In this document: in pieces, positions 12,044-56,349 of the stretch
How the letters are laid out: every line of letters starts with the position of its first letter
Numbering within the stretch: the first letter of the stretch is position 1
From: Raillietiella orientalis
Lineage: Eukaryota
Assembly: GCA_036172245.1 (NCBI GenBank)
Contig: JAYWIR010000002.1
Coordinates: 5,270,001-5,334,000 of the forward strand
Direction of reading: 5' to 3'
Length of the DNA: 64,000 nucleotides
Position numbers and translations under genes: made by a program
Notes under the pieces: generated by a model
Told to the model about the DNA's origin: nothing
Database searches by the model: none
The model's input: only the letters and a program-made list of their open reading frames with translations

Positions 12044-12050
12044 CATCCTT

Positions 12051-14695: not shown

Positions 14696-14869
14696 TCTAT
14701 TACCGGTACACAGCCCAGCGATGTCCGCTTCCGCAGCGGGGGAGAGGGGTTAAGCGAAAGCGAAAGTAAACAAACAAAGGAAAAAAGGCAGGAAAGCTTT
14801 ACTTAGGGTGGGGGGGGGGGATATTCAGGAAGGTATCACTGCTCGCTGCCAGGAGTCCTCCGCATCCTG

Positions 14870-17330: not shown

Positions 17331-17599
17331 TTCCCCCACTCTTCCTGTGCGGACCACATTGGGGAGCTGCCCACGAGAAGCAGCGCCCCCGAGGCATTTC
17401 CCTTCGTACTGGTGCTGTGAAACCACTACGAAGGTTTGTAGGACATTCATTATGAAAATACTAAAAGCACATTGAAATTAGTCACTTGGTTCACCACGAT
17501 GGTCCAGCTTGCCATTGTCCGGTACGGAGACCGGCGGGATTCGCTCCCGCAGAGAAGGGAGAAGGAAAATCACAAAAAAGAAAAAAAGGGGGAGAGGGG

Positions 17600-19458: not shown

Positions 19459-20290
19459 GCCCGCGTTTGTGACCGTGTGGCTGCGATCTCCTCGTGTGGC
19501 ACCAAGCGTTGCGGGTTCGAATCCATACGTGGAGGATCGACGCCGAGAAATAGGTGCGTGCGTCGTGGACTTCAAATTCTACCCGCAGGATGACGCTAGT
19601 CGGCCCATGGGCATTGCGGCACTGGTGGAAATCGGAAACCCCCGGATGCCCCGTTGAGTGGCTGAGATTGGAAGTAGACCTCTATGGTCCTTCCAGGACA
19701 TCAAGGAGCCAGCTCCCTTCGGGATTCCCCTCTGATTGTCCGTTACCATGGAGCTGGTTGATAACCTCTCGAGGGATCGTCTCTCCAGAGTGTCAAGAAG
19801 TGCGCTGCTTCCTTGGGGGAGCGATCCTTCTGAGAAAATGAAGAGAGTCCCTCCCGGGTTCTCTTCCGAGGAGGAAACAAGGAGCGGTTCTCTTGTGGGT
19901 GCCCTCTGGAGAGGAAAATTCCAAGAGCGGATCCTTTCCGGGTTCCTTCCGAAGAACAAACGATCCTTTCCTCTTAATCCCTCCGGAGAGAATCAGGAAG
20001 AGGTTCCCTACAGGGTTGCTTACTGGGTTCCCTCCTAAGAATAAGGGAAGAACGGACTCCTTCTTCCTCAGCCCTTCCTGGATCCATAGGGTGATTCCTA
20101 TGGGGTCAACCCCTAACTAAAAGAATGGCACATACCCTCGGGTAGTGTGGGCAATGTTTGAAAATCTTTGTAAGTTCTCCCTTACTCCTTGAGGAGGTGG
20201 TGAGTTCTTTAGCTCTCCTTGAGAACCAAAAAAAAAATTAAAGAGCCGGAAGGAAAACGGCGAGAACCGAGGAACCCAAAAGGATTCTCA
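19459..20290 (+). mobile_element. Long tRNA-headed SINE-like element, apparently full length (about 830 nt)
   Basis: Head GCCCGCGTTTGTGACCGTGTGGCTGC..GTGGCACCAAGCGTTGCGGGTTCGAATCC, full body, A-rich tract at about 20228-20242, then conserved tail GAAGGAAAACGGCGA..GAACCCAAAAGGATT. Confidence 0.85.
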
Positions 20291-25325: not shown

Positions 25326-28300
25326 TCAATGCATCTCGGCTTTGCTCAAGGCTAAGGCCAGCTCATAGTCTTCTTTTTCCTGTTTGAGTCTTTGCTTGTA
25401 TTTTTCTTCTGACAAAATGGATTCCTTCTCAAACCATGACCACCGATCTTCAGAAAAGGAAGATTGGGAAGGTAAACTAGGATTGTTCTGAGAAACAACA
25501 ATGGGAGAGAATGGATCAGAACCCGCAGACTCTTTGTCGTAACCAAGTTTGGTTTCTCCCCAAACTGATGGGCTTGATATGATTTGTTCAGCAAATGGAT
25601 CACCTTTGTCAAAGACATCTTCACACAAATTGTTGTTCAGGGACCATGGATTGCTGCTGCTCATCGTATCACTGAAGAACTATAGAAGAAGAATCAGTGC
25701 TGGAAAGTTGTGAAAGAAAAACAAGGTGGTTAGTAGGCAACAGCAGCAGCAAGTGAAGAACTAGTCCATCCATGGCACCCAAAATGCGGAAGCACCTCCA
25801 CCAAGGGAGCCAGGAGGGCAGAATACATCCCTACCTTATCAAAGTTAGCGAAATCTGCAAAGTTGGTATTAGCATGCTCCTTGGTTGCTTCAGAGCAATG
25901 CAACACTGGAGGAATAGGTACGGGAGGCTTGGAAGCGGTCTTGGAACTTCCAACTTTAGGAGGTGCTGGGCGTGGTGGAGGCTGTTTGGTCTTTTTCGGC
26001 GGTAATGATGGAGTCAAATTACTTTCCACGGTAGGCGCAAAAGGATCAGCCCCAAACAAATCACCCATCTGATTTGATAAGAATCACATTTTTGTGAACA
26101 TAACTGACCTGATCTGTGTTACTACTTGGCGTAGCTTTTGTACCACTAGAAGGCAAGAATGGATCTGGCTGATCTACATTAAAGGTGAATTCGATGCAGC
26201 ACTTGATTTAAAAACTTACCAGTTTGTGATACACTGCCAGAAAACGGTTCTCGATTCCTACTTTCCTAAAAACAGAATATTATCTGAATGCTCAAGAAAG
26301 AAAAAAAAAAAAATTACCACATGGTTTGCAGCATCTCTTTCAAATGCATTTGTCAGAGATTCATTATCTGCTTTCCTGAATTCCAAGTCATTCTAATTTC
26401 TCATATTTAGCTAAATACATGACAGCAGTAAACTACCTCAGCTGCTGGCGTTTCAGATGAATTGATTTGTGATTCAAAATCCTCCCACACTGGGTGGATA
26501 TCGCGAAGTGCTGTCTCTCCTAACGAAGATGCATCACCACTTGAAATAGCTGCATCATAAAGCTGTATAGTTTCTTCCAATTGCTGATAGCAATCCTGAA
26601 GCTCCATGATGCGAGATTTAGTCTAATGAAATGGACAAACTCGAGACCTTTTGGTTAAATTAAAGTCGTACCTGAGAGCTTTCTAACTGAGTTTGAGCAC
26701 ATTTCTGTGTTAGATTCTCAAGGAAGGTCTTGGCAGAAACTACTTGTGTTTCCAAACGAGATTCCTCTTCTTTAAGCTCATCCAACTCTGCTTGTTTACG
26801 GTGCAATTCTTCTTGCTGTTCCTGTACGCATTTTTCTTGTTCCGTTACTTGCTGTTGCAATGAATCCACCTGATTGAAGAATTTCTGGGTCAAAATTTTC
26901 TTACAAAAACAACCAAGCAAACGGCAAACAAAGTAAAACACAACAAAGCTTTCTTTCAAAGGCATTTGAATGTTAGCATTACCTTTTGCTGCAAATCATG
27001 CACCTGGAGACTTAGCTCATTCAGTTGACTTTTCAAGGCAGTGCACTAGCAAAGGAAAAAAAACAAAAGCATACATGCAGGAAATAAAGCTGCAACTGGA
27101 AGGAACCTAGTGCTAATACTGCTACATACCTGAGTATCTAGTTCATCCAGATACTTTTGTGCCTCGCCCTTTTGTGCCTGCAGTTGCTTCACTGTGAGCA
27201 TTAATGTATCTACCTCTCCCTGAACACTCAAAATTAATTTCTTATTCTAAGGTTCTCTTTTTCTGACTTGCAAATTTTTCAGTTCCAAAGCTTTAAGACG
27301 CAACTCGGCTTCTGCTTTGATCACACTTTGCTCCAATTGGGTTTTCTCCAGTGTAATCTCCTCTACTTCCTTAGCCAATGTCTGAAGCTCGGGATTGGAA
27401 AACTTGGCAGTGCTAAGTTCCTGGGCAAAAGATAGGTAGCGAATTTAGCGAAAATGCAGCTAAAAACTTCTCGAAGTGAATTCAAAGAAATGCGCAGTCA
27501 ATTCTGAAGATGCATTTATATAATACTATATTCCAAATTAAAGTATCACACATGTACCACTGAACACACATTAATACAAATTATACAAAGAAAATGTGAA
27601 ACAAAAATACGAATCCTTATCATTTTTAAAGTCCATTAACATTTGATCCGTAAATACCAATCATTATGCAAAATTATTGAATTGTGAGTAATTGCTGAAA
27701 CCATGGAGGCAAAAATAACATAAGAAATTAAAACACTCACTAATAAATCGAAGAGAAATTTTTTTTTCAAATCCAGTTCAAGAAATACTATCTCATTTTT
27801 GTGTTTTATACATTTACAAAACCATCAAATTTAACTAGATCTTTTGAATACATTTTGAATACATTTCTCTGAAGGAACTGCTGATAAATTAACTTTTTTC
27901 ATATAACAAAACATGATTATATCAATGAGTCAATGTCTCATCACACAATCATTAGTCAGCTATGGTTTGCATGAATTTTAAAATAAAACTGCACAAGATT
28001 CTTTCATAGCAATTCTGACTATGATTAAATACTGGTAAAATATTGATGAAAAATTCTTCACGTACTTATTAAGAATAAAAGCAAATTTAATCCAAGATCA
28101 GCAACTTTTCTAAAGTCAATAGTCAACTGCAAAGAACTTTACAAAGAAACAATCACAAAATGTGACGAAAAATTTCGCAAACACATTCCTTGAGCAGATT
28201 CATTTTAAAGTTTGCAATGCATACATGTAAGGAATGTATTCATAGTTCCTTCAGAACTCGGGGCTTTTTAGAAAGCAATTGTGAGATGTGGAAACAAATA

Positions 28301-30948
28301 CATGATGTGTCATTTAAGTAAGTTTCTTTAATAGCTTCTTTATCAGTATACTATGTCTGAGTGCAAAATACAACCTGAAACGTACATATTTATATGCCTA
28401 CTTACTGGAGTTGGAAACATTCTGGAGCGAAATGAGGGAGGAATCATTTCAGGAAGAAGAGAAGTTGGAGGATCATTTCCTTTTTTTTTTTGATTTATCA
28501 GCCATAATGCTAAGGCAAATTGCTCCTGATTCAATTTGCCTGTCTGTGGAATATCACATAGGTTCCTATATTTAATTAGAGAATGCTCAGTGAAAAATAC
28601 TCACCAGATATGTGCTAGTACTGATTGTGAGAGACCAGATTGGATGAACAAATCCCTAATTTCAGTTCCATTCACAAAACCATCTTGGTCAGTGTCTGTT
28701 TGCATGAACAGTATATCATAATTAATCTTTTCATCACTGCTGACTACCCAAGGAAGGGAAAACTATAATCAGGCTGCACTCAATAGAAAACAGTAGTCAT
28801 AATGAGCTCACCTCTGGCTGAGTTTTGGAATGTGAATCAGGAGAAACATGAACTCCATTCACAATTAAACTGGAAGAGCTTACAGTTAAAGGAAGTGGAG
28901 GAATAGGTGGTGGTACTGCAGGATGAGAGACTGATGGCAAAGATGATGAGACTGATGTGATTGCAGTTGACAAAGCAGGCATGGAAGAAGGCATTACGTT
29001 TCGTTTACTGAGTGGCACCATTTCAAGTGGAAGAACATCAGGAAGGGGTATGCTATCCAGTGCTTTGTACACTAAATGCATTCCCTAAAATCAAACACGA
29101 AAAAAGTCACTTTGATGTTAACTGAATTCATCTAACCAGAATAAACTCCTCTCGATCCAAGGATCCATCTTTATCGATGTCAGCAAGGTCCCATATTTTA
29201 CTAAGAGTTTCTAAACTTAAATGTGAGTTTAGCATAACAGGTCGCACCTTTTTAAAACCAAGATTAAATGTGCAGTATGATTCCTTACCTTGGAACCATG
29301 GAGTTTTCCTTGCTCTGGGAGCAAAGATTCAAAGAGCTGCTCATATTTTATCCTTTCATTTGGTGCAATGGGCCATAGAGATTTAGTTGGTGTATTTACA
29401 TAAGAACCATCTTGCACTGGAATCACTTCACCCTGTCCAAAAACACATGAAAAAATATTGCTATCCGACATAATTGAAACAAGGTTCCAAAATGCAAATT
29501 AAATGTGAACAATAATCAAAAACTTTATGTACGAAAATAAAGTTTTAGTTTTAAGGTATCATTGGAAAACAGTTTCACAGCTTTTTGCTTGCATTCTTAT
29601 AAGCTATAAATTGCTCAATAATGCAGATTGCATTTAATTATATGATGGCAGTAAAATTTTATGTACCAAAGTATAATTATTAATCATACATCTTCTTCCA
29701 CAACTGAAAATAACTTAGCAATACTTGTGGAGAATAAACAACGGAGGTAATGAATTAATCTGATGCACATTAAAAATGTTAGCTACAATGATATGCTCAC
29801 ACATAGCTTTTAATTCAAAATGATGCCTAAAGGTGTTGCAAAATGCAAAGCAGAAATCTGACAACAAAAGCTATCTTACAAGTGGAATCAAAGGACTGAA
29901 TTAAGCTTAAGGTGAATGTTTCATTGTTGTATCCATTATAGCTTCCAAAACAGGTATTCTGATTTTCACTACTTTACTAAAAGATGCACATTTTTAATCT
30001 GGAAGTCCATAGAGCAAAGATGGTCTTTTAAGCAAAAATGAACCAGCATAATTTTTTAACGCTTTCATTAATTTCCATTTTTTTAAAATCCAATTTGTTA
30101 ACAAATGACTCCTATTGCTGATGTAAGTTTTCAGGATAATCCAATGAAACACAATTACCAGGAATGCAGGACCTATATCCTCCCTTATGTTTTGGAGACT
30201 GATTGGTTTTCCATTTTGGTAAAATGCTATCAGTTTCAAAGCAATAAAAAGTCCTTTTCTATCTAACCATCCTTTTTGGTCAGAATCTGCCAAATCCCAT
30301 ATCTTGAAAACAGAGGGGATCATTAACATTCAAAGTAACAAACGAAAATTGTACGAACAGCCATGCAACTGAACACAACAAATAAAGAATCATAAAAACA
30401 CGACAATTGGAATTATTTTGTGATTTATTCGTCACAAATGAAGAATTAGCAAAAAAAGGTACCTACTTTACTTAGGACTGCATCATTAAGTCCTGATTTT
30501 TTAAGGAATACTGCTGCATCACGAGCGGATATTTTTCCTGTGCCAGAACTTAGCTGCAAACAAATTGTTCAACGTCTTATACTTTGATTTGCCTAAGAGC
30601 CATACCTGTTTGTAATACGCCTCATACTGCCTTAGATTAATTCCCGCAATCTGAAACCGAAATAACGAAGATAAATTCCAAAGTTAAATTCTGACTACAC
30701 AGTTTTTATGAAACCACACTGAAAACTTCGAAACAACATCGGAACACAGGCAATTGATTATTAATGAGCAACTTTGGCATTTTTTGTTTCAATAAACATG
30801 TAGGTGGATACTAGGTATTTTTAAACATTTAGAACTGCGTACATATTGTAAACATACATTAATGAAATAGATCTTGCATTTTTTTTTTTTCATCACATAC
30901 AAATAAGAATAAAAACAACACCTGAGCATCCGAAAGTAGAGAAGCCAT
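25326..30948 (-). CDS. Eps15: Epidermal growth factor receptor substrate 15 (Eps15/EPS15L1-like) endocytic adaptor, 19 coding exons, about 870 aa
   Basis: Phase-consistent GT-AG exon chain built by hand (5'->3' on minus): 30948-30922, 30650-30606, 30553-30467, 30302-30159, 29432-29289, 29247-29137, 29084-28812, 28762-28605, 28565-28406, 27420-27268, 27219-27130, 27045-26983, 26869-26672, 26622-26437, 26392-26318, 26265-26220, 26173-26109, 26068-25835, 25679-25326. It encodes three EH domains ([56 protein letters not shown]), a long coiled coil, DPF motifs, a Pro-rich [15 protein letters not shown] and a terminal UIM ([17 protein letters not shown]). Confidence 0.95.
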
Positions 30949-33676
30949 TGCTATTACAGGCAGATAACGAATGCAACGAAGACTGTGTCCAATGAGAGCC
31001 CACTTTCAAGTCCTAATATCCTGAAACAATTCGCTAGAAAAAACACTGGTTTGGCTTTTCCTTTTTTTTGTGTGTGTATCCTGATTGTGACAATTTATGA
31101 GAAAACTTCAAATGAATCTCGGCACGGGTCAACACCATTACTTCGCATCACATTACTATAAACGGACAATCATGAGATTAGCTAGCAAAGCAACGGACAG
31201 ACACTGTGTTATTCGCCTGCACTTGAATTGGTGCATTCACCAAAAAGTTCCCTCAGTTGCCGAAGAAGTGAGACTTCTTGGCTTTCCAGAACTCAGACCA
31301 CCACCACCCCCGTCTCTTTCACACATTTTCACACTTCACGCACCGAAAACACCGTAAACGCACACAAGTCGAATTCCTCAAAATTAATTAAAACGCGAAT
31401 TCGGGAACCCACGGTTTCGTCCTTGAGGAATGGACCTGCAGGGTAAACCAACATGCATGTTTGCAGGATATTGCCAAGTAATTAATTTTCCTCTTAAGTA
31501 ATTTGGAACGGGTAAAAATTGAAACCCATGTAAGACGGATTTCTACTGCCGGCGCTAACTGCATGGACACTCGCCTTCTTCTTTTTTCTTTTTTTTCCTT
31601 TTTTTTTTTTTTTTTTTTACGTCGCTATGCCAGTATTCTTCTGTACATGAGGTATTTGAATATGCAGCTACGCAAATGCAAATGTTAAATATTTGTACTG
31701 CTTTGTACTAACAGAACATCAATAACGTCAACTGGCAAATCATGAAAACACAGTAGATATTGAAAAGCACTGATAAAAGGAAATTCCTACTCCTCTTGGT
31801 AAAATCGCAACAGAAGCCAGCGACAACTGTACATGCACATGATAATATATAAATTGAAAACAAAAAATTGAATCCGTAGCCGAGGCAGTAGGAATGAGGA
31901 ATTTTGATGGAAGACAGGAACCACCCTTCATGTATTCATACCATGAATTCTCCGCAGTTGACATCCTTGATTTCTATGAGAGCACAGGTAAACTGGGAGT
32001 GATTTCACATTATGGAACCGTTATATAGTCCATACCTTTGTGTTCCTGATATCTATGGAATCATTCCCTGCCTTCAGATACATTTTGAAAGCGTCTTTTG
32101 TGTGTGTGTGTGACAAAATATTTCGCACGTTGCAGCTCAATCATGAGGTGTAGATGGAAGGCAAGGTCCCTGCACCAAGACAGAAGCAGTGATTTCGAGT
32201 CATGTATGCAATACCTGGTTTGGATTAGGAATCCCGAATTCGAATAGTCAGTCTTGCTAAAAACAGTAGCACTAAACTTGCTTGAAAGTGAAACATGAAC
32301 ATCTTATTTGAAGGTGGATTTCTATTTTTTTTCAAATAGTACATCCACTGGTATCAGATTAAGATCCTTCAAAGAATTTTGCATTTCTGGTTACTGTGAC
32401 AAACATGAATCTCTGAAAGCATTTGGTGCTCGAGATTGAGTGCGGTTCTTAAACCCTTAAGACTCCAACTCTCATGTAAACATGTCGGCAAGCGTATGGA
32501 TTTGACCCCTAATCAAAAGCTTAAATACAATCTTTGATTGGAAACTAGATTTCCTTTCATTAGCTTTCTAATTGTTATTCTGAAAAATGAGAAATAAACC
32601 TATCCAGAAGGTTCAACATTCCAGTCAGATGCGGAATTCCGTGATGTGGCCACAAATTGATGACATCATGATTATTCGGTACCTAATAAGCCAGAATGGT
32701 TAACCTCTTTAATATCTTAGTGTCTTTTGCTTAGCTCATATTGCCTTTTCAAATGAGCGTAAGGAAATTTTTGATATAAATTAAATTTTATTTATATTTA
32801 TAATTAGAGTAAGCTGTTTTAATTGAGATCTTATATGACTACTAAACCAAAACAAAAACAAGAAGAATTTGAATGAACATGTTTAGTAGTGTTCAGGAGA
32901 CAAGAAGTGAATACAGATTATAAGACTGGAATGCGGAAATTGAAAGTGTTGGTAGAAGTGGAAAACCTTCGAATTTTGTTCTTAGATTTAAAAGCGTGTT
33001 GGATGCGTTTAGAAGTCAAAGGGAAAACCTAAAGTTCTATAATACTATAGCCAATCAAAACCAATAAATGAACTCCATGCTAGAGGAATCCGTGTAGCAC
33101 TCAAGGCAGCACCTTTTTGTAGCACTGAAAAGTGAGGGTCTGAACGCCGGTCGGCTTTCACTTAAACCAAGCCGTTGAAATTATCAACGTTATCAACAGA
33201 GTTTCAAAATTCCAAGTCACATACAGAGATATCTTTCATCCACCTGGATAGACACACTTTTTCCCATAAGGAAACGACATACCGGTGTTCACATGCCCAG
33301 GACGAAATCGCAGCGTTCATTTCCCATCGATGAATAATGGTTCATAAACAACACACGTTCGATTTACGGTTCTTCCCCAACTTTTCAATAATGACGTGGA
33401 ACTCTGTACTCACGTGAATGAGGCATCAATGAAACAGTTCCCGACGGCGAATTTCATTTTTTCTTTCTTTAATGAAACCAGAACAAATCGAGAATGCGTT
33501 CATTGGTGGAAACACCCCCATTGTTGCAAACGGATCGATCGGCGGAACTGGCCAGCCCCTCGAAACAAGTCGTAGGCCCAAGAGAAAAGTTTTCTAATGC
33601 GTGCAGTGATAATTTTTAACGCAATTTTTAAATTCTGGCCTCCTTAAAGTTCGAGTCTCTTCGAATAAAGGATCGA

Positions 33677-36600
33677 ATGGACTGGAAATCGACCATGGAT
33701 CGTGGTACGCTGCTGGCACCCACCATCCAGAGATTCCCTTTTCGAAATGTTCAAGTAAGTGGAGATGGAGATGGATTCATCTGGTCTGAAGCAGATTTCT
33801 CTAAAGCTGCTGTGAAAAACCTTCATCATCTTGAAAACTTTCGTTGCCTGACAAAGTTGAATTTGTCTGACAACAACATACAAGGTCAGTAAAGCGTCCT
33901 TGACGCACAATCGCAACATAATGAAACCACAGAGCTGTCTGTTCTTGGACGCATGCCATACCTGAAAGAATTAGATGTTTCTCATAATCAGATCTCCTGC
34001 CTTCTAAATTTTGCTCCACCTATTGCGTTACGGCTCGCCAACTTTTCTCACAACAAAATCAGTATCATTCAGGACATTTCTCACTTCCGGACTCTTGTCA
34101 TTCTAAATCTGAGTTGTATCCTTTTGAAAAGCATGGAGACTTTGGCATACTCGGGTTTTCCGGAAAATCTATCATTCGGAATTTAATTCGAGTATTTCAG
34201 AAATATCTTTGGCGTGATTTCGTCTCTATACCAAAACCATTCTATGAGCTGTGTGTGCGTGTTTTTTTTTTTAGTTCTTTTGGACAATTGAGTTCTTTAA
34301 ACAGCGGGATAGATTTTTCATTGCAGCAGATGCAATGAAAGTTGATGAGCATTTGTTTCATATGCGAACCATGGGATCTTTTTTTTTCTTTATGGAGGCA
34401 TGTGTCTAAGGCATTCGCTTACCAAAACTAACCGGAATGTTAAGAGCAAATTAGCACTTGCAAGAAGATTGAACTTGCAGATCTACGATTCTTAACTGCT
34501 GCTTCGAATGGCTCGCTCTGTTTTTTGTGTACAACTTTGCAGCAGACACGGTGCCGTTTCCTCACTGTTTGTGTATATGAGAGATTTGGCCAGAACCATT
34601 CCTGTTGCCATTCCTCTACCTTCGATAACTGCCGTGAAAGTAAGTTTCTGGTGAAGTCCGCCCTAACTGGCATGAAAAGGTGCAAAGTGATTCACAGGAT
34701 AATGCAGATGAATCTGAAGTTCCTCTTTGGGCCGGATTTTCAAAAAAATCAGGGAAGCATCGGTTTATGTCGGCCCATCTGTTGCTCGACCCATTGTACA
34801 CCCAAACCTCGCACACAAAAAAAAGGAGCTGTGCTTAGTAACTCGGGTTTGGAATGTGATTCGTTCGTTGTGTTTTCCTTTGCATTTTTTTTTTGGGTCC
34901 TTCGAAACAAATGAGATCGTTTTCACCTTCCACAAAGTGTCAAAACGACCGATGCTGAATCATGTCAGAATTGTCCAATCGGGAGTGCCACTTTTTGTGA
35001 AGGGAAGAGAGCGTTTCGCACCGAAATGAAAATTTTGCGACTATTCCACCGCATCTACTTCTCCACTGAGGCCCATGAAATAGAAAAATGATTGGAGATG
35101 AGGGCGGATCGAGATCAAAGTCTCCACGATTCCATAAGCCATGTCTTCAATTGCTTTTCGAATAAAAAGATACAAATGAAATGGGTTGGTTTTACAAAAT
35201 CAATCAGCACCATAGGGTTCAACCAAGTAACTAGAGGAAAACAAACTGATTTTATCTCTCGTGAATGTCTCCTCGTTTTTCTCCATGTTTTTGTTTTTGT
35301 TTTTTTTCATTATTATTAATAAATGCTTAATGCAAGTGAATGGTAGCTTGATGCCATAACTGGCATTCCTAGTTCAGTTAACAGTAATCTTCTGTGCATC
35401 CCGGGTGACATCAAACACGAACAGGTTCGATGTTTTTACGTAAGCTGTGTACGTACGGTTTACATGTGCTCTCATAGAAACCAAGGATGCCAACACCTGT
35501 TTACGTACGTTAAAAACGCTGAAAGTGGCAGTCGTCGATTTTTGCCATCTCCCTATTCTAGGAAGACTTGCTTCTGCCATCTCTCAAGCTTCGGCTTGTC
35601 ATGCTTTAATGATAAGTAAATGAAATGAATTCGTTTTGATTGCAATAACACCAAGCAGATCATAGTTTTTCAGTGTGCCGCTTCTTTTCTTTTCTCCTAG
35701 TGAAAAGAATTGAAACTTTGAAATATTCTCAGTTTGGAACTTATTCCATATGCTTGTGAACCAGGCGAATTCGGAGAAGGACTGTGTTTGTTCAAAGAAT
35801 GGAAAATTATCATACAGAGCTTTTCTAAAATACTTTCGGTTTTCGATTTAGAGTTACCTTCTGATTGCTTCTTTCTGGTCCAAAAAATTTTTTTGTTATT
35901 TGAGAATCTTTGTTAAAAAAAAAAAAAAAAAAAATGGATGCTTCAGATTGTCAAGTGGGTCTTCAGGTGCTGTTTAGGAACTCATTTTAATCAAGACACG
36001 GAGGAAGCTTTGCAATTTACTATGCGGCCGCGCCTGTTACTATCTCAAAGGACTGACAAAAGTTTTAACAAATATTCTGACCATCATTCGTTGTCACGAA
36101 ATGACTGTACATTTTCACAGTAGATTTTGTGTTTAGAACTACTATTAGAAGTTCCCTGCTAACTGTATGAATGCTATGAGCTAGATAATTGATAATTATA
36201 AAGCAATCATTCCTCATTTTGAGTTGATGAACGAGCAATCCCAAAGTGTGAAGAAATAATGGTTGGTCTTCCGCGAAAAAAAAAAAAGCATCAACTGTTT
36301 CCATTATATCAGCTATTCGTCCAGCTATTAGGTATTTCGATCTACGGGTGTCCATGAAATTCACCTCATTTCTGTGTTAAGATTATAAGCGTGGAAGTGT
36401 TCATTTGCTAGCAGTGAGTTGATTTCTGCTCAAATGTAGTTACTTGTCTACATATCCAGAAGTCTAAATGCTTTCCGCAAGGTCCTGTAGCAATCCGTGA
36501 CACGGTCATTTTGTGACACCCTACCAAAGGAAAACGAATGGTTGATCGCGAAAATTTATTTTTCCGACGCTACTTGCAATGGAATTTATAAATCCTCAAT

Positions 36601-39600
36601 GCTTCCGTACTTCATTGCTCATGAAACTCTCCTTTTATCTTTTCCTGGATATCAAAAATGGAGAAAATTGAGCGAAAACAAAAGTTAATACGAAAGCATG
36701 ACTCCTCAGCGTCGAGAGTGATACTGTAAATATACTGTTATCAAAGAGTGGATACATTTAGTGAACAAGGAAGTGAGTAAACATGTTTAAGGAGTCGAGA
36801 TTTAGATTTGAAAGCTGACGAAAGCTTTAATTCCTAGTTTCTTGTATCTTAGGAGACTGATCACGAGGTATTGGATACGAAGATAGATTGCGTTCATGTG
36901 TCGTTGTTACAATTCCGAAGGATCGTCTTTGCTTCGAATGTAATGTTTGCATTTCAGGGGGAAAAGATGAAAAGCTTGACCGCTGACCTGCTCCAGGAAT
37001 AATTTACGTTTAGACTCTTCGAGACTGATCTCCTAACGATACACTTCAGAACCAGCATTTGTCTCTAGGTAACTAAAATAAATCCTGGAAATCGACAATC
37101 TTAGATCAGAATCTTGAATCTAATTTTGAACACATCATCCAAGTGTTGCTTCAGAGAAGTCAACACTTGGAGTCATAATATCATGAATGCGCGGTTGCTA
37201 AGCGCCGAAGGTCTGCTGGATTAAATGGTAACCCTTAGAGCTAGGTGACTTGTCGAGTTCAGACGGATGAATAACAGGAACTTATCATCCAGAAGATCTA
37301 AAGGAAATGCACTTTACAAAAATGCTCAGTTTGCAATGAGAATCAGGAATTCATATAATGACGTTCACGCCATCTTCCTGCAGCACACGCATTTGCACGT
37401 GTACATAGGCAAAATGCGAGATTTTCTGTATGATTTGAGAATAGATGATCAGACACGGAATATTTATTGAGACAGCAGGCTGCATGAGATGTAGCCGTAT
37501 GTTTCATGAAAACTTTTATTTATTTATTTTTTTTTCCAGCATGAACAGACAAGCATTCGTGTCATGGTTGTGATCATTTGTAGAGAAGGATATTAATTAT
37601 ACAAGAAAAAGCTGCACTTCAACATGAATGTCCTGATTTGATGCAAACGTTTTTGGAAAGTAATGCAGCATTCAGGCCTTTCGAAATCGTGTGGAAATAT
37701 CTAAGCGTGCAATATGATGAGGTAGTGGTGGTCCATCAATTTAATAGTACCTCATGCCGACGATTCTCAAGATGGCTCCCTCAGTTGTTTTTAACATGAT
37801 CAATTTTTTTTTTTTAAAAAAAAAAAAACTTCTCCTCTAGTATTTTCGATGAATGATTATTGCTCCATTCTCATTGAACGATTTAGTTAAGTTTTAATGA
37901 CACGATCGAGCGAGGTGAAAAAGAAGGCAAATTAACGCATGCGTTTATTTGGGAGAACGATGAAGCGTGAAAAAAAATTTCATTCTTTTAATTTTCCTCA
38001 CTTGTTTTCACTAATTTCATGTGTATCCTTGACATTTCTACGAAAACCTGGATTTAAAGAGTGTGAAGCTGCCTTTGTACGGTGTACCTTACCCACAATT
38101 TCACCACGAGTCCATATCAGTTTTCACGTACATGCAAGCTATCTGGGCTATCGAAGGACGATTCCCCCTAAATTCGGTTCTTCTCGAAAGAAGTCGAGCT
38201 GAATAAACCAAAAAAAAAAAGCTCATTCGATTTGATTCGCTTTTTGATTTGACCGAGTTTCAAAGTTGGATTGTGGCCTGGCTTCGTTTTGTGAATAAAC
38301 ACAACTGCAGAATGGAAGATTGCATTTTACAATGGAAGCATCTTCTGACCCTCGAAAGACTTCCACTATATAATGTAGAAGAATGTATCTTCAAGTGGAA
38401 GCCCTTAAAAGCGTTTGTTTCATTCCATTTTATTTTATCTTTACCATCAACCACATATTGAAACTCATGCTCGTTTTTTCATCATGATTATGGAATGAAA
38501 TTTTTAAAAAATTTATGCAGTTGCATGATAACGTTTTTAACAAGTCATCAGTGGTTTCTTTCTGAACTGTTTTCAAGTCGATTGCATTTCAAAATGCCTG
38601 AGATAATGATGACGATGATGATAGCGATACTAAAAAGAAGGATAAAATAAACACGAATGATACTGTACTGCTATTTCTCACGAAAGATTAGAGATTGAGC
38701 TCAAGAAAATGCTGTCTTACTCGAAACAGCTCCCTCCCTCTTTGCTCGCCACGTTCAGACCCGGCACTGCACACAAAGCACCTCAGCGTGAGCCGTCGTC
38801 AAGTAAGACTGTTGACACGGTTGCATCATCACTTTGGAAAACATTGCGGAATTTCAAAGCACGATAAGGGGCTTGCATCGGAAATTCAACACAGCTGGTC
38901 AAGCTATGCCCATGCACGACAAGGGTGACACACGTCCGTTAATGGCGCTGTGACTTCACGATCACGACGAAGGATCAGTGTACTGGATGAAAGGAGAAAC
39001 GCGCACACTGCGAAGATCCTGAGGCTTCCCCCTTTGAGAAATGCAGCTACAGTCCTTCGGCATGCACCTTATGTCAATTTGATTAGCATCTGCTGACGCT
39101 CGCATAAATGTCTCCGGCGCTATCGGGGCACGGTGCCTGCTACGTTCTTCTGGATGCTTCAAGTAATGTTAAAGCATCTTGCATGAATCAACGTCCTGGA
39201 AATATTTATTGCATAGGTATAGGCAGTCGTTCCGATTGTTCTGCAGAATGGTTCGCAATGAAACTTTGAAATCCACAGCTTCATATTTTTTTTTTTTTTT
39301 TTCCCAAGCAGAATACACGTTTCACCTCCGTATTCTGAAATTCTGTCACTCTTTGTCTGAAGTGATAGACACATGCATTCCACGCCACTGCCTATGGACT
39401 TGCCAATACGATTCAGATTTGCTAATGTGAATACAATACATTAAGAGTCTCGTATGAATAAACGAGAAAACACAATTTCATCACTACTCTTGTCATCACA
39501 TCATATTCATTCATTCCGTTTTTCACTTGTCAATGCCTTTCTTTTCTTTAATGAATGTTTGACAACATCATACATAGCGTGGATGGGTTAAAAGGCCTGA

Positions 39601-42439
39601 AGTACTTAAAGGAACTGGACCTATCTCACAACCTTTTGGAAAAAGTTGATTGCATTGATGGAGAATCCTTGGCCATCTTAAATCTGGTAAAACCAAACTG
39701 CAAAATTCGAAAATCAATATTTTCGTTGATCCTTTTCTGAAATCAAACTGAGCCCTTTCAGAAAACGTTCCATCTTGGAAAGCTGATATGTTTCGGTGAA
39801 GCGGATGCATCCTTTACTGAAACGTATTTTCGTAATGGGAGCATTTCCAGTTTCGAAATCTTCGGCAGCGTTTTCATGAGACGAAAACGAAATATGCGTA
39901 GTTTCGATTTTTCGTTATTTTTGGTCCAACCGTCATCTTAATCATGAAATTGTGATTTGATCTTAACACGCATAGTTCACGCTGTATTTCAGTTCGATGA
40001 CGCTAAATCGGCGCAGCAAAGACCGACAAATTTCTGTTGGTAATCTGCTGCTAAGTTTTGCCTCTTGGTGATGCGAACTGAAGGAGTTTCTGACTTAATA
40101 AACACGAAGGAGAAAGCGGGTGGCGTAAGAAATGTTCGTGGGAATTGCTTTATTGCATACGAACATCTCACGGATAGAAGGGTCGCTTTGTTATCTCTTT
40201 CTCAATTTTTAAAATCTTGATCGTTTTCTTTCCTATGGCATGTCGAACGAGTCGACCACCAGCATCGACGTTTGTCATCCGTAATTTCACCTTTTTGAAT
40301 TTTTATCTAAATTCTTCCATCTTCTGATTTATGCCTGTCACTTCCATTTCTATAGCGGCAGTTGCTTTCATTTATTCGCTGAGTACACACTCTGTTTGTT
40401 AAATTCAATATCCTACTTTAAGCAGTTTGGCATCGTTTTCTGTTGAGATGACTGCTTTTGACATTCCCGTCGAAGCAGTTCTGCGTTTCTGTTTCCACTT
40501 TGCTTGGAAAGCAGCTGCATGATTACAGAATGAATTGAGCTATCGTGACGGTACTGCCACTCCCTGGGATTTCCAGGAAAAACACGATGCCTTGATGCTC
40601 GTATTTGTGTTTTGCTTCAAAGTAATGAAAACCTCGGTTCTCTACTGAAAATGGAACGTTCTTACGAAAATCCACATCCCTCTAAGAAAGCTCGGTACAG
40701 AGGAGTAAAGACGCTCAGCAAAAAACAGTATGCTTCCACCAATCTCTGAAGCCATTCAGCGAGACCGCATTGGGAATCACAAGCAGCACCTCGAAATTCA
40801 AAGTGCCTATTATGCCAAGTCTTGCACCTTCATTTTCCCCACGTTCGACATGAAGTAGGAAATCGTATCGTAACACAGTGATTCTTTCAATGGGATCCAA
40901 ATAAATCGAAAAGCACGGGAAACGAAAATTTCAGATGATGCAAGCGATGATTCGGTAAAATCGCATTGCAAAATAACAAAAGCTTGTTTGAATCTTATTC
41001 GTTCATCTATTTTTTCCATTTACGCAAAACATTCATACGACATCAGGAAAGTTACCATTTCATGAGGGAATCAACCTGAAACTCATAAAAGAGTTGATGC
41101 GACGCATGTAGAATAAATTGGTAAAAATGTCATTAAAAAAGTTTGCTAATAGATGTCGATACCTTGAATCAGCAGTGAGGATTTTCTTTGTGTTTTTAGT
41201 AGATTTTTTTTTTTCTTTTCATATTTTAAGTTGAATAGTATCTACGATGCCAGCAAAAGTACGCAACCGCCTAACCCCTTGAAAGGTTGATCTTCGAATC
41301 TGCTTTCATCGACTCGTACAGTCCGATCAGAACCAGAGTGCCTACCTCTTTCAAGATGAAGGGCATTCCCGAACTCAAAGATGCAAGCGTCCTTGCAGTT
41401 TGCTCCAAAACGAAGCATTAGTTTGCTAAGTCATTTTGAAGGCTCTTTAATTTTCCGTCCCAAGAAATGCAGCTTTATGTTTTGTTGAGTATGACTGCCA
41501 TGTATGTTTATATGTACATTTGGTTAGCACTTTAATCCCTGGTAAATGTTAGCGTGTTGATGGGTACTTTGAACACAGATTACGAGCGTGTGGATTTACT
41601 CCATGCCCAGCCTTGAAAAGGTGTTTCAGCATTTTTTTTTCTTCTTCTTCTCAATTATCAGAGCAACAACAGCCTACAATCTATTGAAGGGATACAAGCA
41701 ATTTCTTTACTGGAGCACCTGGACCTCAGCTACAACAAATTACAGAAATGCATCTGCTCCATTTTAGCCAACAAGCTGTACTTGAAGGAACTGGATTTGT
41801 CTTGTAAGTGGGAACAAAGCTTTTTCTTTTTGTTTTCCTGATTGAAATTCTGTTACTGCTGTCACAGGCATCAGGCGCAAGCAAAAGATCGAAACCTTTC
41901 ATTTTTCATAACAGGAAGGAAAAAGCAAATCATGAAAAATATGCTTAACTGCTCGGTGCAGCACGCTATCAAAAGATGATGCACACTTTCGATTAAACAC
42001 AAGCTTGCAAACTTCTTGATAATAAGAATTCACAAAACGGACGAAATTCAGTTTTTGTTTTGTAAAAAAGCGTAGTATAATTTTTAATTGTTTTCTACTT
42101 TGACAAATATCCTCCAGCAGGATGCCATTTTTTAAATGGAGAATCGATATTTTTCGGATGGTCGAATTCTGCTTAATAAAAGTCCAAAGTTGCGCAAACT
42201 TCAAAATCCTCGAAAACAAGAAGCGTTTTTATGAAATGCTGTGATCTATTGCAGATAATTTGTTCCCGGGGCTGGACATGCTTTGCTGCTTGAAAACCTC
42301 TCAGCCGGTCCAGAGGATCAACTTGGCAGGAAACGAAATCTGCACGGTTTCTCATCATCGATCCCTGGTTTTGTTCCACATGCCCCAGCTGGAGACGTTG
42401 GACGACGTGCAAACAACACTGAGTGAAAAGGCACGTTGA
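33677..42439 (+). CDS. LRGUK: LRGUK-like leucine-rich repeat protein (LRR and LRRcap portion; 3' end uncertain)
   Basis: Exons 33677-33884, 33933-34115, 39562-39686, 41662-41803, 42255-42430 join in frame into tandem SDS22-type LRRs (LTKLNLSDNNI; MPYLKELDVSHNQI; NFAPPIALRLANFSHNKI; LVILNLSYNII; LKELDLSHNLL; LNLSNNSL; LEHLDLSYNKL; LKELDLSYNL) plus an LRRcap (INLAGNEIC..HRSLVLFHMPQLETLDD). The MPYLxELxxSxN..F.PP..L..A.FSHN.I segment is what I recall from LRGUK. The last recognised exon ends either at a GC donor (AAG|GCACGT, 42431) or at TGA 42437-42439. Confidence 0.75.
34116..39561 (+). other. Putative U12-type (minor spliceosome) intron 2 of the LRGUK-like gene
   Basis: 5' splice site GTATCCTTTT at 34116 matches the U12 consensus RTATCCTTT. 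A branch-point-like TTCTTTAAT lies at 39544-39552, about 10 nt before the only junction (39561/39562) that restores the LRR LNLS-Y-NII. Confidence 0.75.
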
Positions 42440-48400: not shown

Positions 48401-51400
48401 GGGATTGTCGTCTGGACATTCTTTGAGTTGTTGTTTGCCCTCTCTAAGCAGTGAAGGCCACTTGCTACTGACGCTTCCCGAGGCATAGCTCATGGAATTT
48501 GCTCTGCCTCCTTACATAAAGTTGTTTAAATTCTTGCACGGAACTGAAGGGTCTCACGGTAGCATGAACAGCGCTGCGGACTATGGAAAACCAAAGGAAA
48601 ACAACACTGGTATATAAACAAGAGCTTCTCCGTTGATTCTTAGGAGAAATACCGCTTTTGCATAGTTTGGTGGCAACTTCGTTGCAAGACGGTCTTTTAC
48701 TTGGCTGAAAACAATTAATCGCAAACAGGAGCTCAAAATGAACTTTAAAAGTTCGAGGTCGCCATACTGTATTGAAATCAAAATGAGAAAACGCAAGAAT
48801 TGTAGGAAAGAGAGGGTTGTATTCAGTAAGATGTCATTCCTCAGTCTTTCACAACTTACGACAGTCCCACAGAACCATTTCCGTGCAGAGAGGAACGGAG
48901 TGACATAATATACGACACACTGTAGGTAAAGGAACAAGACAAGTCCAGTTGAAGAGTCACCGATATTTCACGTCAGAAGGAGAACATTGCTTCCAGAATT
49001 CTCGATCTAACGACGCACGTGAAATTTCTTAGTGGTCATTATCAGTGAGCTTTTCGTTCGTGGACAATTGAACTCAAACAGCATGAACGATGTGTTCGGG
49101 GATTCACAAAGATTATGCTGGAACTTTCCCTCTGGAACGCTACAGAACCAACACAGGAGCGGAAGGAAGGAAGGTACAACTAATGCTTCTCATCCTTATA
49201 TTCAGAATTTGGATTTTTCTTTTTTTCCCTCTCAGACGTAAATTCGGATGATCCGAATGGATTTTACAGAAGAAACAGTCTTCATCGTATCCTCAAGTGA
49301 AGAAGAATAAATGACGGGTGCTCTAATGCTTTCAAAAAGTAGGGAATTCGTTCCGCATTCCATTTTGAGCTCACGCATGCGGCTTGGAACTCTATGGAAC
49401 AAATGCAAGAGGTCTCTACAACACACACTGCAAACGCGTTCCATTAAATCGTCAACGCGTATGGCTTCACTTTGATCTTAGCCAAAAGGCCGAGAAGCGA
49501 TTCCAAGCGTACGGCTTCTAAGGTGAACGCGTTCTTGTCCTTTCCACGGTATTTGCTTCCTATAGGAAGGGTTTCCTTGTTGTTCTTCTGTTCTTAGTTT
49601 TGATGGGTGGGGAAAAAAGTCTTGTTCATAAATGCTTAGTGGTTTCACCGGGAGTTCTGTCTTTTTTTTTTTTTTTTTTTTAAAAAACAAGAGAACTACC
49701 GGTGCTGACGCACCCTGGTTACGCTTGTGCTCAGACCTAGCGTCTCGATAGACGCCTAACGACCATGCTCAAAGTGTAAAGAGAGAGAGAGAATTGATAG
49801 AAGAGGACAAATTGAAATCTGCGGTGAGATATTCGGTCACCTCTCAACAGAACAAGTGGAACCGGAAAGAAAAAAAAAGAAAGAAAGAAAAAGAAAAAAA
49901 AACAGCGGGAGGAGGGGAGAGGGAAACGTCCCAACCGAGACGTATTCCTCCAAGAAGCAACTTGAGTCTTGCTGTTTCGAAACACCACCTCGAGCCGCAA
50001 GGGTCAACACAAAAAAAGTACTCAACAGCGCAGCCGTACAGCACGCGCGCGCACTGCTGTGTTGAGATCGCTGTCGCGAGCGAGCGCCTCCACTTCTGTT
50101 GGGCAAGCGGTGCTCAGAACGCTCTTCCGAACGCAACAGATATAAAAAGTATCGGCATCAATAGGCATTCTGGGGACTTGCCGAGTGGGAATTGGCCGGG
50201 GCTCCTTCGCGCGGGGGGAGGAGGAAGAGAGCCGTTTTCGGGATTTTCGACGGAAAGTCGAGTTGCCAGACGCTCGATGTTAGTCCGCCAGCCAGATGGC
50301 GACATCCCGAGACGCCGGCAGATTGGAAAGTCTGGACAAGAAGTTTGCACGAAGGGTCGTCCGCCCGTAGGATTACGGGGAAGGGGGAGGGAGGGACGCC
50401 TAGCGCATCGTCGCTGCCTTCTCCAAGGCCACGCTCGTTTCGGATACGACGAGCAACCGCAAGCAAAAACCCTCCCAGGAGAAATTGAACGGCAGCGACG
50501 GTGCCTCAGGAGACTGGGATCTCGCGTTCAGGTACCTGGATGGATTTTCTCTGGAGAGAGAGACCACTTCACTCCCGGCAGAGACTCCCGAGATCGGAAC
50601 GAGAACGGGGACGGAGGAGCGTGGAAGAGGAAGCGAACAGTCCGCGAAGACGACCGTGAACAGGATCAGCAGGCTGCCTGGCAACGGAGATGGCATGCAA
50701 ACCCTCGCTGCCTCTTGCACGGCTTGATGACTCGGAAAAAACACATCCAGCGTGATGCTGAGAACCCCTCGGGCTGGGATGGGATGGCCTGCGACGAAGG
50801 AAAGAACCGATTGGAGGGAAACCGGCGTGCGTGCGCGGCCCCACGTGGAGGGAGTCAGCCGTGCACCGCGAAGCGCGCATTCGGAAGACCCTCGGGATGT
50901 GTTTTCGCGAGCGCACGAACCAGCACTCTGGAGCGGGAACCATCGGTCACGGAGAGGAAGAGGGGGGGAACCAAGGAGTGATCCAATCGTGTCGGCGTTG
51001 TGTCACGGACACGGTTCCTAGAGAGGCTGCTGGAGCGGGAACCCTCTTGACCTGGTGCTGCTTTCCTTCTGGCAGCGAACCCCGCGCCTTCGCGCCAGGA
51101 TCCTTTTGACGACCGGCAACCGAATCAGCCTGCTGGGGTCACCTCCAGTCTCCTAGGTCGCTGTTCACGACGAAGAGGCCAATCCCTCCGTCGGAGGCCA
51201 AAGTGCACGTCAGCATCACCGAAGAAGCGTTCCGGGAGATGATGGACGAGGGCGAAATGGTCGTGGCTTGCACGTTGCTCGGCGACCACTACGGACTCGC
51301 GAAGAGCGTCCTGCGCGAAGCTGCGAGGAAGAGGAAGCTGGTGGCCACCTGCCTCCCCGTCGAGGCAGCCCTGCAGCTCAACCTCTGCAGCTTCGAGGCG

Positions 51401-54400
51401 CGGTTTGTGCTGGTCGAGATGGCAGCGACTCCCGCAACACGCGGCGGCGGCCACGATCCGAGAGATCCAGCGCCGCCGCCCCCCGAGGACCCGGAGAAGC
51501 GCTGCCGCCCCTGCTGCCCCCAGCAATGTTCCCAGATCCCTTCTCCGCTCCCTTCCTGGAGCAGCCGCGCCCAGTACCTGGCGTTCGGCACGCTCGAGCA
51601 AGCTTCTCTCCCTGGGGGAACGACGGAGGTGAGTGGTGAGAAGCGCAGCTGCGAGCAACAGCCGCATCAGATCGAGGGAAAGGGAGGGGGAACAAGAAGA
51701 GAGGGAAAATGGGAACAGTCTATGCTAAAAGAGAGAACAGAAGAAGAGGAGAAAGAGAAGGAGGAGGAGAAGGAAGGTTTTTCTAAGCGCCCCCTTCTGC
51801 GGGGGAGCTGCGAAGCGACCGGAAGAAAAGTCCAGGTCGCGTACCCGCCGGTCCGTTTGCGTGGGGGAGGAAGGGGGGGGAGCGCCCAGGATCCGCCACT
51901 TCTTCATTCCCTTGGTAGGGACGAGAGGACATGTCAGCCCCCCCGAAGGGACGGCCTGCTCCACTCCAGGGCGAAAGGAGGTCCCGCAGATGTTTGGAGA
52001 AAACTCTTCTTCCTCTCTGGGCAAGCAGTGCCAGCACGACAGTAGTCGGCCAGGAGCGGCCGTTCCCCGAGCCTCGTTGCCAGGAGCGGGCAACGACGAG
52101 CGATGTTTTCCGGTTGGGCGGAGCGGCGACGCGAACCTCCTGGACTTCGACTGGACCGGCGCGCCGACTTGCTGGGACCATCCCCCGCTTGACCTGGCCA
52201 GGCGTTTGCGTGCGCTCCTTCCTTCCCTTCCTCCCACCTCACCTATGGGGGGAGCGATCGATGAAGAGGGAGCGAGAGGAAGGGGAGGGCGAGACGGAAG
52301 CGCGGCGACGACGACACGCCTCAGGCCTCTGTCCGCTTTCTCTCCTCCTCATCCCCTCCTCCGCCTCTCCATCGACCCCCTCTCTGCTGGCAGCAAATCA
52401 GCGAAGCCGCCCTCTCCCTTTGAGTCTCGAAATCTATCCACGTGAGGTTCGCTCCTGCCGGGAAGAGGAAGAATCCGAAACCACCCTACAACCTCCAATC
52501 TGTGGCCCAAGTGCAGCCACACACAGCAACAACCAGAATCTTCCGTCCATCCCGAACCGTCGCTGGGGGCGAGGGGGAGGTCATTTGACAGCCTCTGCGG
52601 CATGAAGATGGAGCGAGTTCGGCGACACCACCTCGGAGGCGGGTCGTCCTGGCGTTCCCGGAACAGTGCCCGAGCGCGCGCGGTTCGCCGGAACCCCCTT
52701 TTTTTCCCGTCTGGCCGTCGCGCGCTGCCGACTGGGTGTGGGACGAAGTGTAGGCAGGAGGCGGCGAAAATTGGAGGCTGGACAGGAAATCCAGGGCGGA
52801 CGCTTGCCAACTTGCATCAAACGCTTGCAGCTGCTCACTGCGGAGCGGGTAGAAGGGGTGGGAGTGGGGTGGGATGTGGGTGGGGTTCCACGCCTCCGCG
52901 GACGCGAAGCGCATGGCGACGCAAAATGGAATTCGCCGACGCAGGGACGGAGCCGTTCCACTGGCTTCGAGCCCGTGAGCGCGCGCGCGCCGTTGGCGTA
53001 GGGAAGAACCAGATGGAAAGGGGGATGGAAGCGGGGAGATAAGGAGGAGGAGGGGACGGTGACGACGACGGCGACGGCGACGATTGCGAAGAAGCTTCCG
53101 GGTTCTGGGGGGAGCTCTCAAAGGCAGAGAAAGGGGGGTCGGTGGCCACCCGCAGAGTCTTCCTTCCCCCAACCCGGGAGGGTGTCCGGCTGCTGCACCT
53201 CGCCAAGCAGATTCGGGACCGAGTGCGCAAAACGCCCTACCTCTTCCCCGTTAAGGCCTTACTGACCTCGCACCGGTTTCCTACCAGACTGGGCTCCGCG
53301 GAAGCGTGGAGGCTCCCTGTGGCTGCCCGCCAGTTCTGGACCTCGGAAGCGCGCCTTTCGGCCCAGCGGTCCCCGGGTGTGCTACCGACGGGCAGCGTCC
53401 GCCAGACAAAGCGACAGGTAAGAGAAGACAGAGGCAGCGGAAGGGGGAGGGGAGAGAACTCACGCTCCTTGGAAATGAAGTCGCTACCGGTCGCTCCGAA
53501 GTGCGCTAAGGACCGCGTCACAGCCCGCATCTTCACGCGGAACTTCTTCCTCCGTCGGTGGGTAGGCAATGCGTGACGCGATGAGACGCCAAAAAAAAAA
53601 AACGCTCAACTGTCCGAACGTTCTTGACATGTCTTTCCTTTTCTCTCTCTCTCTCTCTCTTTCTAAATGGACCGGATTCATTTTGAGAACGCTCGTTGCG
53701 TCGCCATGGCCGCTTCCGGAACATACTCTCGGGAAACACGCGGGAGAGGAAAGGAACTCTTTCTCGGAATCGCACGCGCATCCATCCACAGTTGGATCCT
53801 CCACGGCGCGGCCACCACCATGAAATGGATGCAGTTTTGCGCCTTCCTCCGAGGAGCCGTCTGTTTCTGAATGGCAAAGAAAAAAAGGAAAAAAAAACGA
53901 TTTTTCGTGGCACCTTCAAAACGAGGAAGGGAGCCGAGTCCATCGGCGTTTCTGCGCATGCCTGAGGGGTGGGAGGGAAGAAGACTTCGAAATTTCATGT
54001 GCTCGAGAGAGATCGTCCCTCTTGAGAAAATTTGCTTTCGAATGGGAAAGGTTGCTGGGGACATTTCAGGGTCTCGTAGGCAGGGCTGGGAGGTACGAAA
54101 TTCGGCTCCGGGCGAAGGACGTCTCCTCCCGAAGTCGAATTCGTACCTCCCCCTCCTCCCTTCTGCAACTTTCCACCTTGCATTGTCGCGCGATCGCTAC
54201 CCGTTGAGGACAGTCAGATTGGATTGCTGCCTGCCCGCCGCAAGGTATTCGGGGAAAGAAGGACCGGTTCTTTGCCGAGGATGCTTCTGAAAGCTTCAGC
54301 CCCACGGTTCCGTCTTCGCGGTGCCGAGTTCAGGGGAGGCCGACGCGCCCAGACAAGGCGAAGCGAAAGTCCTGCACCTTGCGGGAAGACTCTACGTTTG

Positions 54401-54651
54401 TTTTTTTCCTCTCTGCGGAGCACCGGGCGCTCCTCCCATGGACGACCCGTGAGAAGCAACTCACTAATCAGTAAGGAAATCTTCGGTCTGGGACGCCGCC
54501 CTGCTCTTCGAGAAGCGTTCGAGGAGGGACCGTGACGGATTCGCTAGTGCAGGAGATAAGGAGAAAGGAATGTAATGGATCCACGGGGATCTCGCGACGA
54601 GCTGAGAAGCGTCAGCGGGAAAGCTGGATTCCGATCAAGGTCTCGCGCTGC

Positions 54652-55330
54652 GCCCGCCTCGGCGGCCTCGTGGCTGCGGCTTCGTGCGAGGCGCCTCATC
54701 AGCCGTCGCGGGTTCGAATCCCTCCCGGGGAGGGTCGACGCCGAGAAGTCGTGGGTTGAGTCCTGGGTTTCCGAGTCCCCTCCCCCCGCAGGATAAGCCG
54801 GTTGGCTCACGAGCTCCAGGCTAGGCGGCGAATCCGAAAACTACCGGGTTTCCCCGTCGACTTGTCTTCGGTCTAGGAAGATGACCCAGGAATCAAGGAG
54901 TCCTTCGGGTTTCCCCTCCGTTTTGGAAATGGGACCGTGCCATGGAGCTGCTCGATACTCCCCCTCGGACAGTCGCCTCTTCAGAGTGTCCGAAACGCGC
55001 CACTCCCTTAGGGGGGCGGCCCTTCAGAGAAAATGGGGAGCGTCCGTTCGGAGCTCTCTTCCGAGGGAGAGGGAACAGGGAGAGGATCCTTTATGCGTTC
55101 CCTTCGAAGAAGAAAATGAGGAGCGACCACCTCCAGGGGGTCCCTCCAGAAAGAGAGAGGAAAAAGAGATTCCCTTCGGGGTTCCCTCTCAAGCGTAAGG
55201 GGAAAGGACTCCAGCCTCCTGAGCCTTCCTGGATTCATAGGGTGATCCCTCCAGGCTATCCCCTATAACTTGAAGAAGAGTAGACACGCACCCTAGGGTG
55301 GAGCGGACAGTGTCGAAGAGCTTCGTGATG
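54652..55330 (+). mobile_element. Long tRNA-headed SINE-like element, first copy of tandem cluster 2
   Basis: Head GCCCGCCTCGGCGGCCTCGTGGCTGCGG..GTCGCGGGTTCGAATCCC, shared body and 3' block CCTTCCTGGATTCATAGGGTG..CACGCACCCTAGGGTG. Confidence 0.85.
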
Positions 55331-55454
55331 GCTTCGTGAGCTTTCGTGGATGCAGCGTGGTTCCAGGCTGCATCCACGGAAGAAGAAATCCACGATGGCA
55401 GAGCAAAAGTGGGGGAGGGATCGCAATGCCAGACCGGCCCGCTGACACCTCCTC

Positions 55455-56336: not shown

Positions 56337-56349
56337 TTTTTTCACAAAC

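Follow-up and report, generated by a model that had tools for sequence, protein, structure and literature searches.

Non-canonical terminal dinucleotides were put at about 5% of minor introns by Sheth et al. (2006, PMC1557818), with GT-GG found 8 times, GT-AT 7 times and GT-TG once, in mouse, and two catalogues together give a share of about 4-5% (PMC1557818, PMC10639083). Switching between subtypes was frequent between human and mouse and always involved a single base (Sheth et al. 2006, PMC1557818). De Wolf et al. (2021) also include GT-TG in their list of human G-type minor introns. In the compilation of Larue and Roy (2023, PMC10639083), the conserved minor introns of animals comprise 54,669 GT-AG, 16,044 AT-AC, 319 GT-AT, 159 GT-GG and 29 GT-TG cases, so that GT-TG accounts for about 0.04% of them, and plants contribute 15 conserved GT-TG minor introns. 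Here we describe a locus of Raillietiella orientalis in a stretch of 64,000 nucleotides (contig JAYWIR010000002.1 of assembly GCA_036172245.1, positions 5,270,001 to 5,334,000 of the forward strand; hereafter the window), where a gene for leucine-rich repeats (LRRs) appears to be interrupted by an intron that begins with a U12-type 5' splice site and ends in TG. Judged from its sequence, the segment 34116-39561 is very probably a genuine U12-type intron, and its 3' end is probably TG. A shade less firmly, we favour as likely the combined reading, in which it is a genuine minor-spliceosome intron of the G subtype, belongs to an orthologue of LRGUK and has TG as its 3' end. The elements on which this reading depends are:

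34116-39561, + strand: proposed minor-class intron, 5,446 nt, GT..TG, phase 1
34116-34125, + strand: U12-type 5' splice site GTATCCTTTT, with T as exon base -1
39544-39552, + strand: branch-point-like motif TTCTTTAAT, A39550 and A39551 lying 11 and 10 nt before the last intron base
39560-39561, + strand: terminal TG, proposed non-canonical 3' end of the intron

The donor GTATCCTTTT matches the U12 5' splice-site consensus RTATCCTTT exactly, with all 10 bases fitting, and is a poor match to U1. The upstream exon (exon b) ends CTG AGT T with its last base at 34115, in phase 1, and the downstream exon (exon c) resumes at 39562 with AC AAC ATC. Moyer et al. (2020) reported an excess of U at position -1 and a bias against phase 0 in GT-AG minor introns, and both the T at -1 and the phase found here agree with these trends. 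Near the 3' end, TTCTTTAAT carries T for C at two positions of the consensus TTCCTTAAC and was counted as the TTCCTTRAY-type branch element. The terminal pair is GT-TG rather than GT-AG or AT-AC, which are the usual pairs of U12-type introns and do not define them. A preliminary description of the locus had proposed a U12-type intron at this place. All of its sequence statements (the donor, the phase-1 exon end CTG AGT T, and the positions of the TG and of the branch motif) were reproduced, and its U12-type reading is borne out by the perfect 5' site, the T at -1, phase 1, a branch-like motif 10-11 nt from the end and the lack of a usable AG.

TG is singled out as the 3' end by the frame together with the repeat register. 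In the frame of exon c, 39552-39554 reads TGA, so that the open reading frame (ORF) opens only at 39555 and the exon cannot reach further upstream. No AG occurs for 109 nt, the nearest upstream ending at 39466 and the nearest downstream being 39576-39577; around the TG, this leaves about 95 nt upstream and 14 nt downstream free of AG. The in-frame TGA and the AG-free stretch together rule out an ordinary acceptor. Donor and acceptor pairs had been enumerated beforehand, and, with the GT donor fixed, all 3' ends 6-16 nt past A39551 were then enumerated. An exon starting at 39578, after the nearest AG (in CATAG), does not share the phase of the donor at 34115, as had been noticed earlier; the frame would be kept only by unrelated AT dinucleotides at 34147, 34171 and 34174. 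Those AG acceptors that do keep the frame of this donor give exon starts at 39595 or later and delete at least 11 residues. Close to the branch motif, the in-frame 3' ends are 39558 (GT, with one residue extra), 39561 (TG), 39564 (CA, with the LRR asparagine lost) and 39567, and the AC at 39563, which has the optimal 12-nt spacing, leads with the GT donor to an immediate stop. With the end at 39561, the product reads LVILNLS-Y-NIIHSVDGLKGLKY, of 22 residues. At the 34115/39562 join, T|AC forms a Tyr codon and the repeat becomes LVILNLSYNIIHSVDGLKGLKY, whose 22 residues share their register with the neighbouring repeats. Among the 3' ends near the branch motif, TG alone retains the frame, the 22-residue register and the LRR asparagine, in line with the previous suggestion that the intron must end in TG if the repeat is to be restored.

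The motifs are common by themselves. RTATCCTT has five matches in the window against 2.86 expected, three of the five being on the + strand, and 15 of 100 shuffled sequences reach five. TTYYTTAAY occurs five times in 30 kb of the + strand. Further copies of GTATCCTT are found at 38023, inside the intron, and at 45693, downstream, neither with an exon context. The argument therefore rests on the position of both motifs, each at the very place where a junction is demanded by frame and LRR register. From these counts, simple arithmetic gives about 5e-5 x 1e-3, or about 5e-8, for such a coincidence under independence.

If the intron is spliced as we infer, in a host that has a minor spliceosome, U11 and then U6atac would pair with GTATCCTTT, and U12 would pair with TTCTTTAAT. 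The second catalytic step would take the G at 39561, 10-11 nt past the branch adenosine. In minor introns it is largely distance that decides the 3' site, and no AG is on offer here. Turunen et al. (2013) give 11-13 nt as the optimal distance from branch point to 3' site, and describe non-canonical termini as spliceable and the choice of the 3' site as error-prone. If it lies at the position of the mammalian LRGUK minor intron, it would be an old, conserved minor intron in which the penultimate base changed from A to T.

The intron shares with the catalogued GT-TG, GT-GG and GT-AT minor introns a U12-type 5' site, a branch motif and a non-AG end, and, like GT-AG and GT-GG introns, it has G as both its first and its last base. 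It does not differ in kind from these non-canonical minor introns and would be one more example. The preliminary description implied that a GT-TG minor intron would be a novelty. This was overstated, given the single mouse case, the 29 animal cases and the 15 plant cases in the published lists, and the GT-TG intron reported here would be another case of a rare subtype already described in them. TG acceptors are also described for U2-type introns (Szafranski et al. 2007; GNAS and TSPYL2 in Parada et al. 2014), where TG likewise ends the intron. In those reports the donors are U2-type and the TG sites are mostly alternatives beside a nearby AG, whereas here the donor is U12-type and no AG is nearby.

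The closest individual relative that we found is the minor intron in LRGUK of mammals. MIDB (Olthof et al. 2019, PMC6717393) includes LRGUK among the minor-intron genes of both mouse and human, with the 5' sites ACA|GTATCCTTT in mouse and ATG|GTATCCTTT in human. The mammalian introns have the branch region TTTTCCTTAAAC, are 7,130 nt long in mouse and 9,715 nt in human, and were scored as standard minor introns (PMC6717393). The mouse intron is that of transcript ENSMUST00000070189, at chr6:34048941-34056070. The intron studied here resembles them in gene family, as judged from exon b, and in the donor GTATCCTTT. Its branch region is TTTTCTTTAATG, with 9 of 12 bases equal to that of mouse and human, and its 5,446 nt fall, like theirs, in the range of several kilobases. 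It differs in its TG end, the mammalian introns being listed as standard.

The positions of the two introns can also be compared. In the alignment, mouse L-I-L-D-N-N (residues 220-225) stands opposite L-N-L-S-Y-N of the present protein, so that D223-N224 faces S-Y. Were a phase-1 intron to split the N224 codon behind its first base, the exon would end in GAC A. The listed mouse flank ACA agrees with this, and so does the listed human flank ATG if the human residue at the N224 position begins with G. From this we infer positional homology: the intron probably interrupts the same codon as the minor intron known from mammalian LRGUK. The flanks are consistent with this without being proof. In the comparison with LRGUK orthologues that had been suggested before, the class is listed as minor in mouse and human, and the position may be the same, to judge from three flanking bases. 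The supplements of Moyer 2020, Olthof 2024 and Larue and Roy 2023 that were searched do not list LRGUK, and our literature search found no paper that pairs LRGUK with U12, nor one that pairs LRRC9 with a minor intron.

The assignment of the gene to LRGUK comes from exon b. In a search against PDB, its best chain was 9ijj_4P (820 residues; E 2.2e-13), and the next chain was TLR9 (E 2.6e-9). We take chain 9ijj_4P to be mouse LRGUK because 9IJJ is cited in work on the central apparatus of mouse sperm (PMC12297659). Our count on the alignment gives 25 identities over 58 aligned residues, and these include the unusual MPYL, NFxPP and FSxNxIS. The lengths of the repeats also run parallel to those of LRGUK, including a fourth repeat of 21 residues and a seventh of 25. 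The LRGUK label of the preliminary description is therefore upheld by the best PDB match of exon b. The guanylate-kinase part was not found in the window; this domain may lie past its end, or its exons may be too short to score. Other searches with exon b were less specific: a word-indexed homologue search gave chaoptin-like LRR matches only (E 1e-4), and the ESM Atlas gave only generic LRR and PPP1R7 clusters.

The last exon recognised (exon e) was also searched. A word-indexed homologue search returned nothing for it, and a HMMER search returned 47 matches, the best of which is LRRC9 (E 2.8e-11). Names were checked for 10 of the 47: three are LRRC9 (32-35% identity), one is an LRR-cap protein of the U2A' family and six are nameless. 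No guanylate kinase domain was present in any of the 12 exon e matches that were scanned. LRRC9 is a protein of about 1,450 residues with several LRR blocks. We rejected it as the identity of the gene: only the cap, a generic motif, is aligned, the reverse tblastn to the window is weak, the 12 scanned matches are free of a guanylate kinase domain, and 1,300 upstream residues could hardly be accommodated between the LRR exons and an EH exon on the other strand (30.0-30.3 kb). This EH-domain ORF, at 29997-30329 on the minus strand (Pfam PF12763, E 2.1e-7), is an exon of a neighbouring gene, which we take to be Eps15-like, and a homologue search with it found nothing close. Its place on the opposite strand suggests a start of the LRR gene beyond about 30.4 kb, which fits the short N-terminus of LRGUK.

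Several points weigh against the reading of the locus as a GT-TG minor intron of LRGUK. Such introns are very rare (29 against 54,669 GT-AG among the conserved animal minor introns tabulated), which makes a wrong or private base a serious competitor. The branch motif is off consensus at two positions, and its 10-nt spacing lies at the short edge of the reported optimum. Pyrimidines make up 70% of the last 40 nt of the intron, closer to a U2-type tract than to a textbook minor intron; the corresponding values for the three U2-type introns of the gene are 78%, 45% and 45%. RTATCCTT per se is not enriched in the window. The presence of a minor spliceosome in the host is assumed. LRGUK identity is drawn from exon b; the matches of exons a, c, d and e are not specific to LRGUK. 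In the stretch from 42.4 to 49.7 kb, no + strand ORF of at least 22 residues matched Guanylate_kin, even with an E threshold as loose as 1, and there were no motif matches either. The evidence for positional homology with the mammalian intron, finally, consists of three flanking bases.

Three other explanations of the junction deserve consideration. The base T39560 could be an assembly or sequencing error, or a private and possibly null allele, of an ordinary GT-AG minor intron whose true or ancestral end would be ..GAATGTTAG|AC. The canonical end is indeed one A-to-T difference away, GT-AG outnumbers GT-TG by 54,669 to 29 in the animal set (PMC10639083), and the mammalian LRGUK intron was scored as standard (PMC6717393). 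We nevertheless regard an erroneous or private base as unlikely, given that the base-error rate of finished assemblies is usually below the frequency of GT-TG relative to GT-AG, which by our own estimate is about 5e-4, and that the rest of the gene is intact. An allele that is still spliced at TG would moreover be the favoured GT-TG intron itself and no rival to it. Shifting both ends by two bases would give an AT-AC intron, 34118-39563, with the exon end ..AGT TGT and the product LS-C-N. The pair (34117/39564) is in frame, retains the 22-residue repeat and is canonical, and its AC falls 12 nt after the branch adenosine, the optimum reported by Turunen et al. (2013). Its 5' site, ATCCTTTT, is however two bases off register against the consensus ATATCCTT, where the GT reading fits all 10 bases, and the protein has Tyr at this LRR position elsewhere too (LDLSYNKL, LDLS-Y-N), so the AT-AC intron seems hardly probable.

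It is also conceivable that exons b and c are not joined in this way, owing to a missed exon, a distant AG that damages the repeat, a decaying copy, or a transcript that starts at the ATG at 39555, which opens the in-frame MFDNIIHS. The 3' region of the intron is pyrimidine-rich, and GTATCCTT recurs within it, at 38023 as already said. A scan for LRR motifs inside the intron gave a single + strand match, at 36913, which does not read as an LRR, and no LRR exon was found there. Any model without the join would still need a non-AG acceptor at 39555-39564 to enter exon c in frame, the in-frame AG acceptors cost the residues counted above, and all five exons are open and LRR-like. We consider a failure of exons b and c to join quite improbable. 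A broader version of the favoured GT-TG reading, to which we give very little credence, holds that the minor spliceosome of the host lineage may have relaxed its requirement at the 3' end, with many minor introns being non-AG and chosen by their distance from the branch. If true, the LRGUK intron would be the first visible sign of it, at a position kept since the ancestor common with mammals.

The GT-TG intron leaves knowledge of minor splicing unchanged, and its value is mainly for annotation: gene predictors that require AG would break or mis-frame the LRGUK gene, and the case shows that a minor intron can be recovered through the frame together with the repeat register. If its position is that of the mammalian intron, the locus would provide a distant data point for the long retention of a minor intron in a cilia and sperm gene, and also for drift of the 3' end from AG to TG with the donor and branch motifs unchanged.

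The gene encodes leucine-rich repeats of the SDS22 type over at least five exons of the + strand. The parts that surround the intron are:

33632-33884, + strand: open frame with exon a (end of the N-terminal region and LRR1, ..LTKLNLSDNNIQ), ending in phase 1
33885-33932, + strand: intron 1, 48 nt, GTCAGT..CACAG, ordinary U2-type
33933-34115, + strand: exon b (LRR2, LRR3 and the start of LRR4), with a phase-1 end and the LRGUK-specific MPYL, NFxPP and FSxNxIS
39562-39686, + strand: exon c (remainder of LRR4, LRR5 and the start of LRR6), starting AC AAC ATC and ending in phase 0
39687-41661, + strand: intron 3, 1,975 nt, GTAAAA..ATCAG, U2-type, with a strong pyrimidine tract
41662-41803, + strand: exon d (LRR6 and LRR7), ending in phase 1 inside a Tyr codon, T|AT
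41804-42254, + strand: intron 4, 451 nt, GTAAGT..TGCAG, U2-type
42255-42436, + strand: open frame with exon e (last LRR and LRR cap, ..INLAGNEICTVSHHRSLVLFHMPQLETLDD..), followed by an in-frame TGA at 42437-42439

The end of exon d (T|AT) falls at the same place of its repeat (LS-x-N) as the GT..TG intron does. The other three introns are ordinary GT-AG introns and all five exons are open across the joins, and for this reason the gene does not look decayed. Intron 1 is very short for a GT-AG intron in a gene whose other introns measure 0.45, 2.0 and 5.4 kb; it contains TCCTTGAC, a match to the branch consensus, 28 nt before its 3' end, and its donor GTCAGT is U2-type. The TGA at 42437-42439 comes directly after ..LSEKAR. 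There may be a weak donor shortly upstream of it (CTGA|GTGAAA or AAG|GCACGT); otherwise the protein stops at this TGA and has no kinase-like domain. In the 5' part of the gene, the 12-mer TTCTTTAATGAA, which holds the branch motif, recurs once within 33465-33481, 8 nt before the CAG at 33479-33481; 16 of 100 shuffles give at least two copies. The near-consensus ATATCTTT lies upstream, at 33229. Taken together, these two elements could mark a second minor-type 3' end in this part of the gene, or they could be chance occurrences in a pyrimidine tract.

Outside the gene, a Pfam search of 213 ORFs of at least 100 residues, from both strands of the whole window, gave no match except the EH exon. 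An Rfam scan of the 64-kb window gave no matches, and no tRNAs were found in it. The G+C content is about 55-61% in the blocks 1-20000 and 50000-64000 and 35-45% in the gene region between them; CpG is not depleted in the blocks, which hold many long ORFs on both strands. A 607-bp direct repeat of 96.9% identity (11437-12043 and 55554-56159), the sole repeat in a self-comparison of the window, links the two G+C-rich blocks and is probably a dispersed repeat. The observed to expected ratio of CpG is 0.25-0.45 at 26000-30000 and 0.75-1.0 elsewhere.

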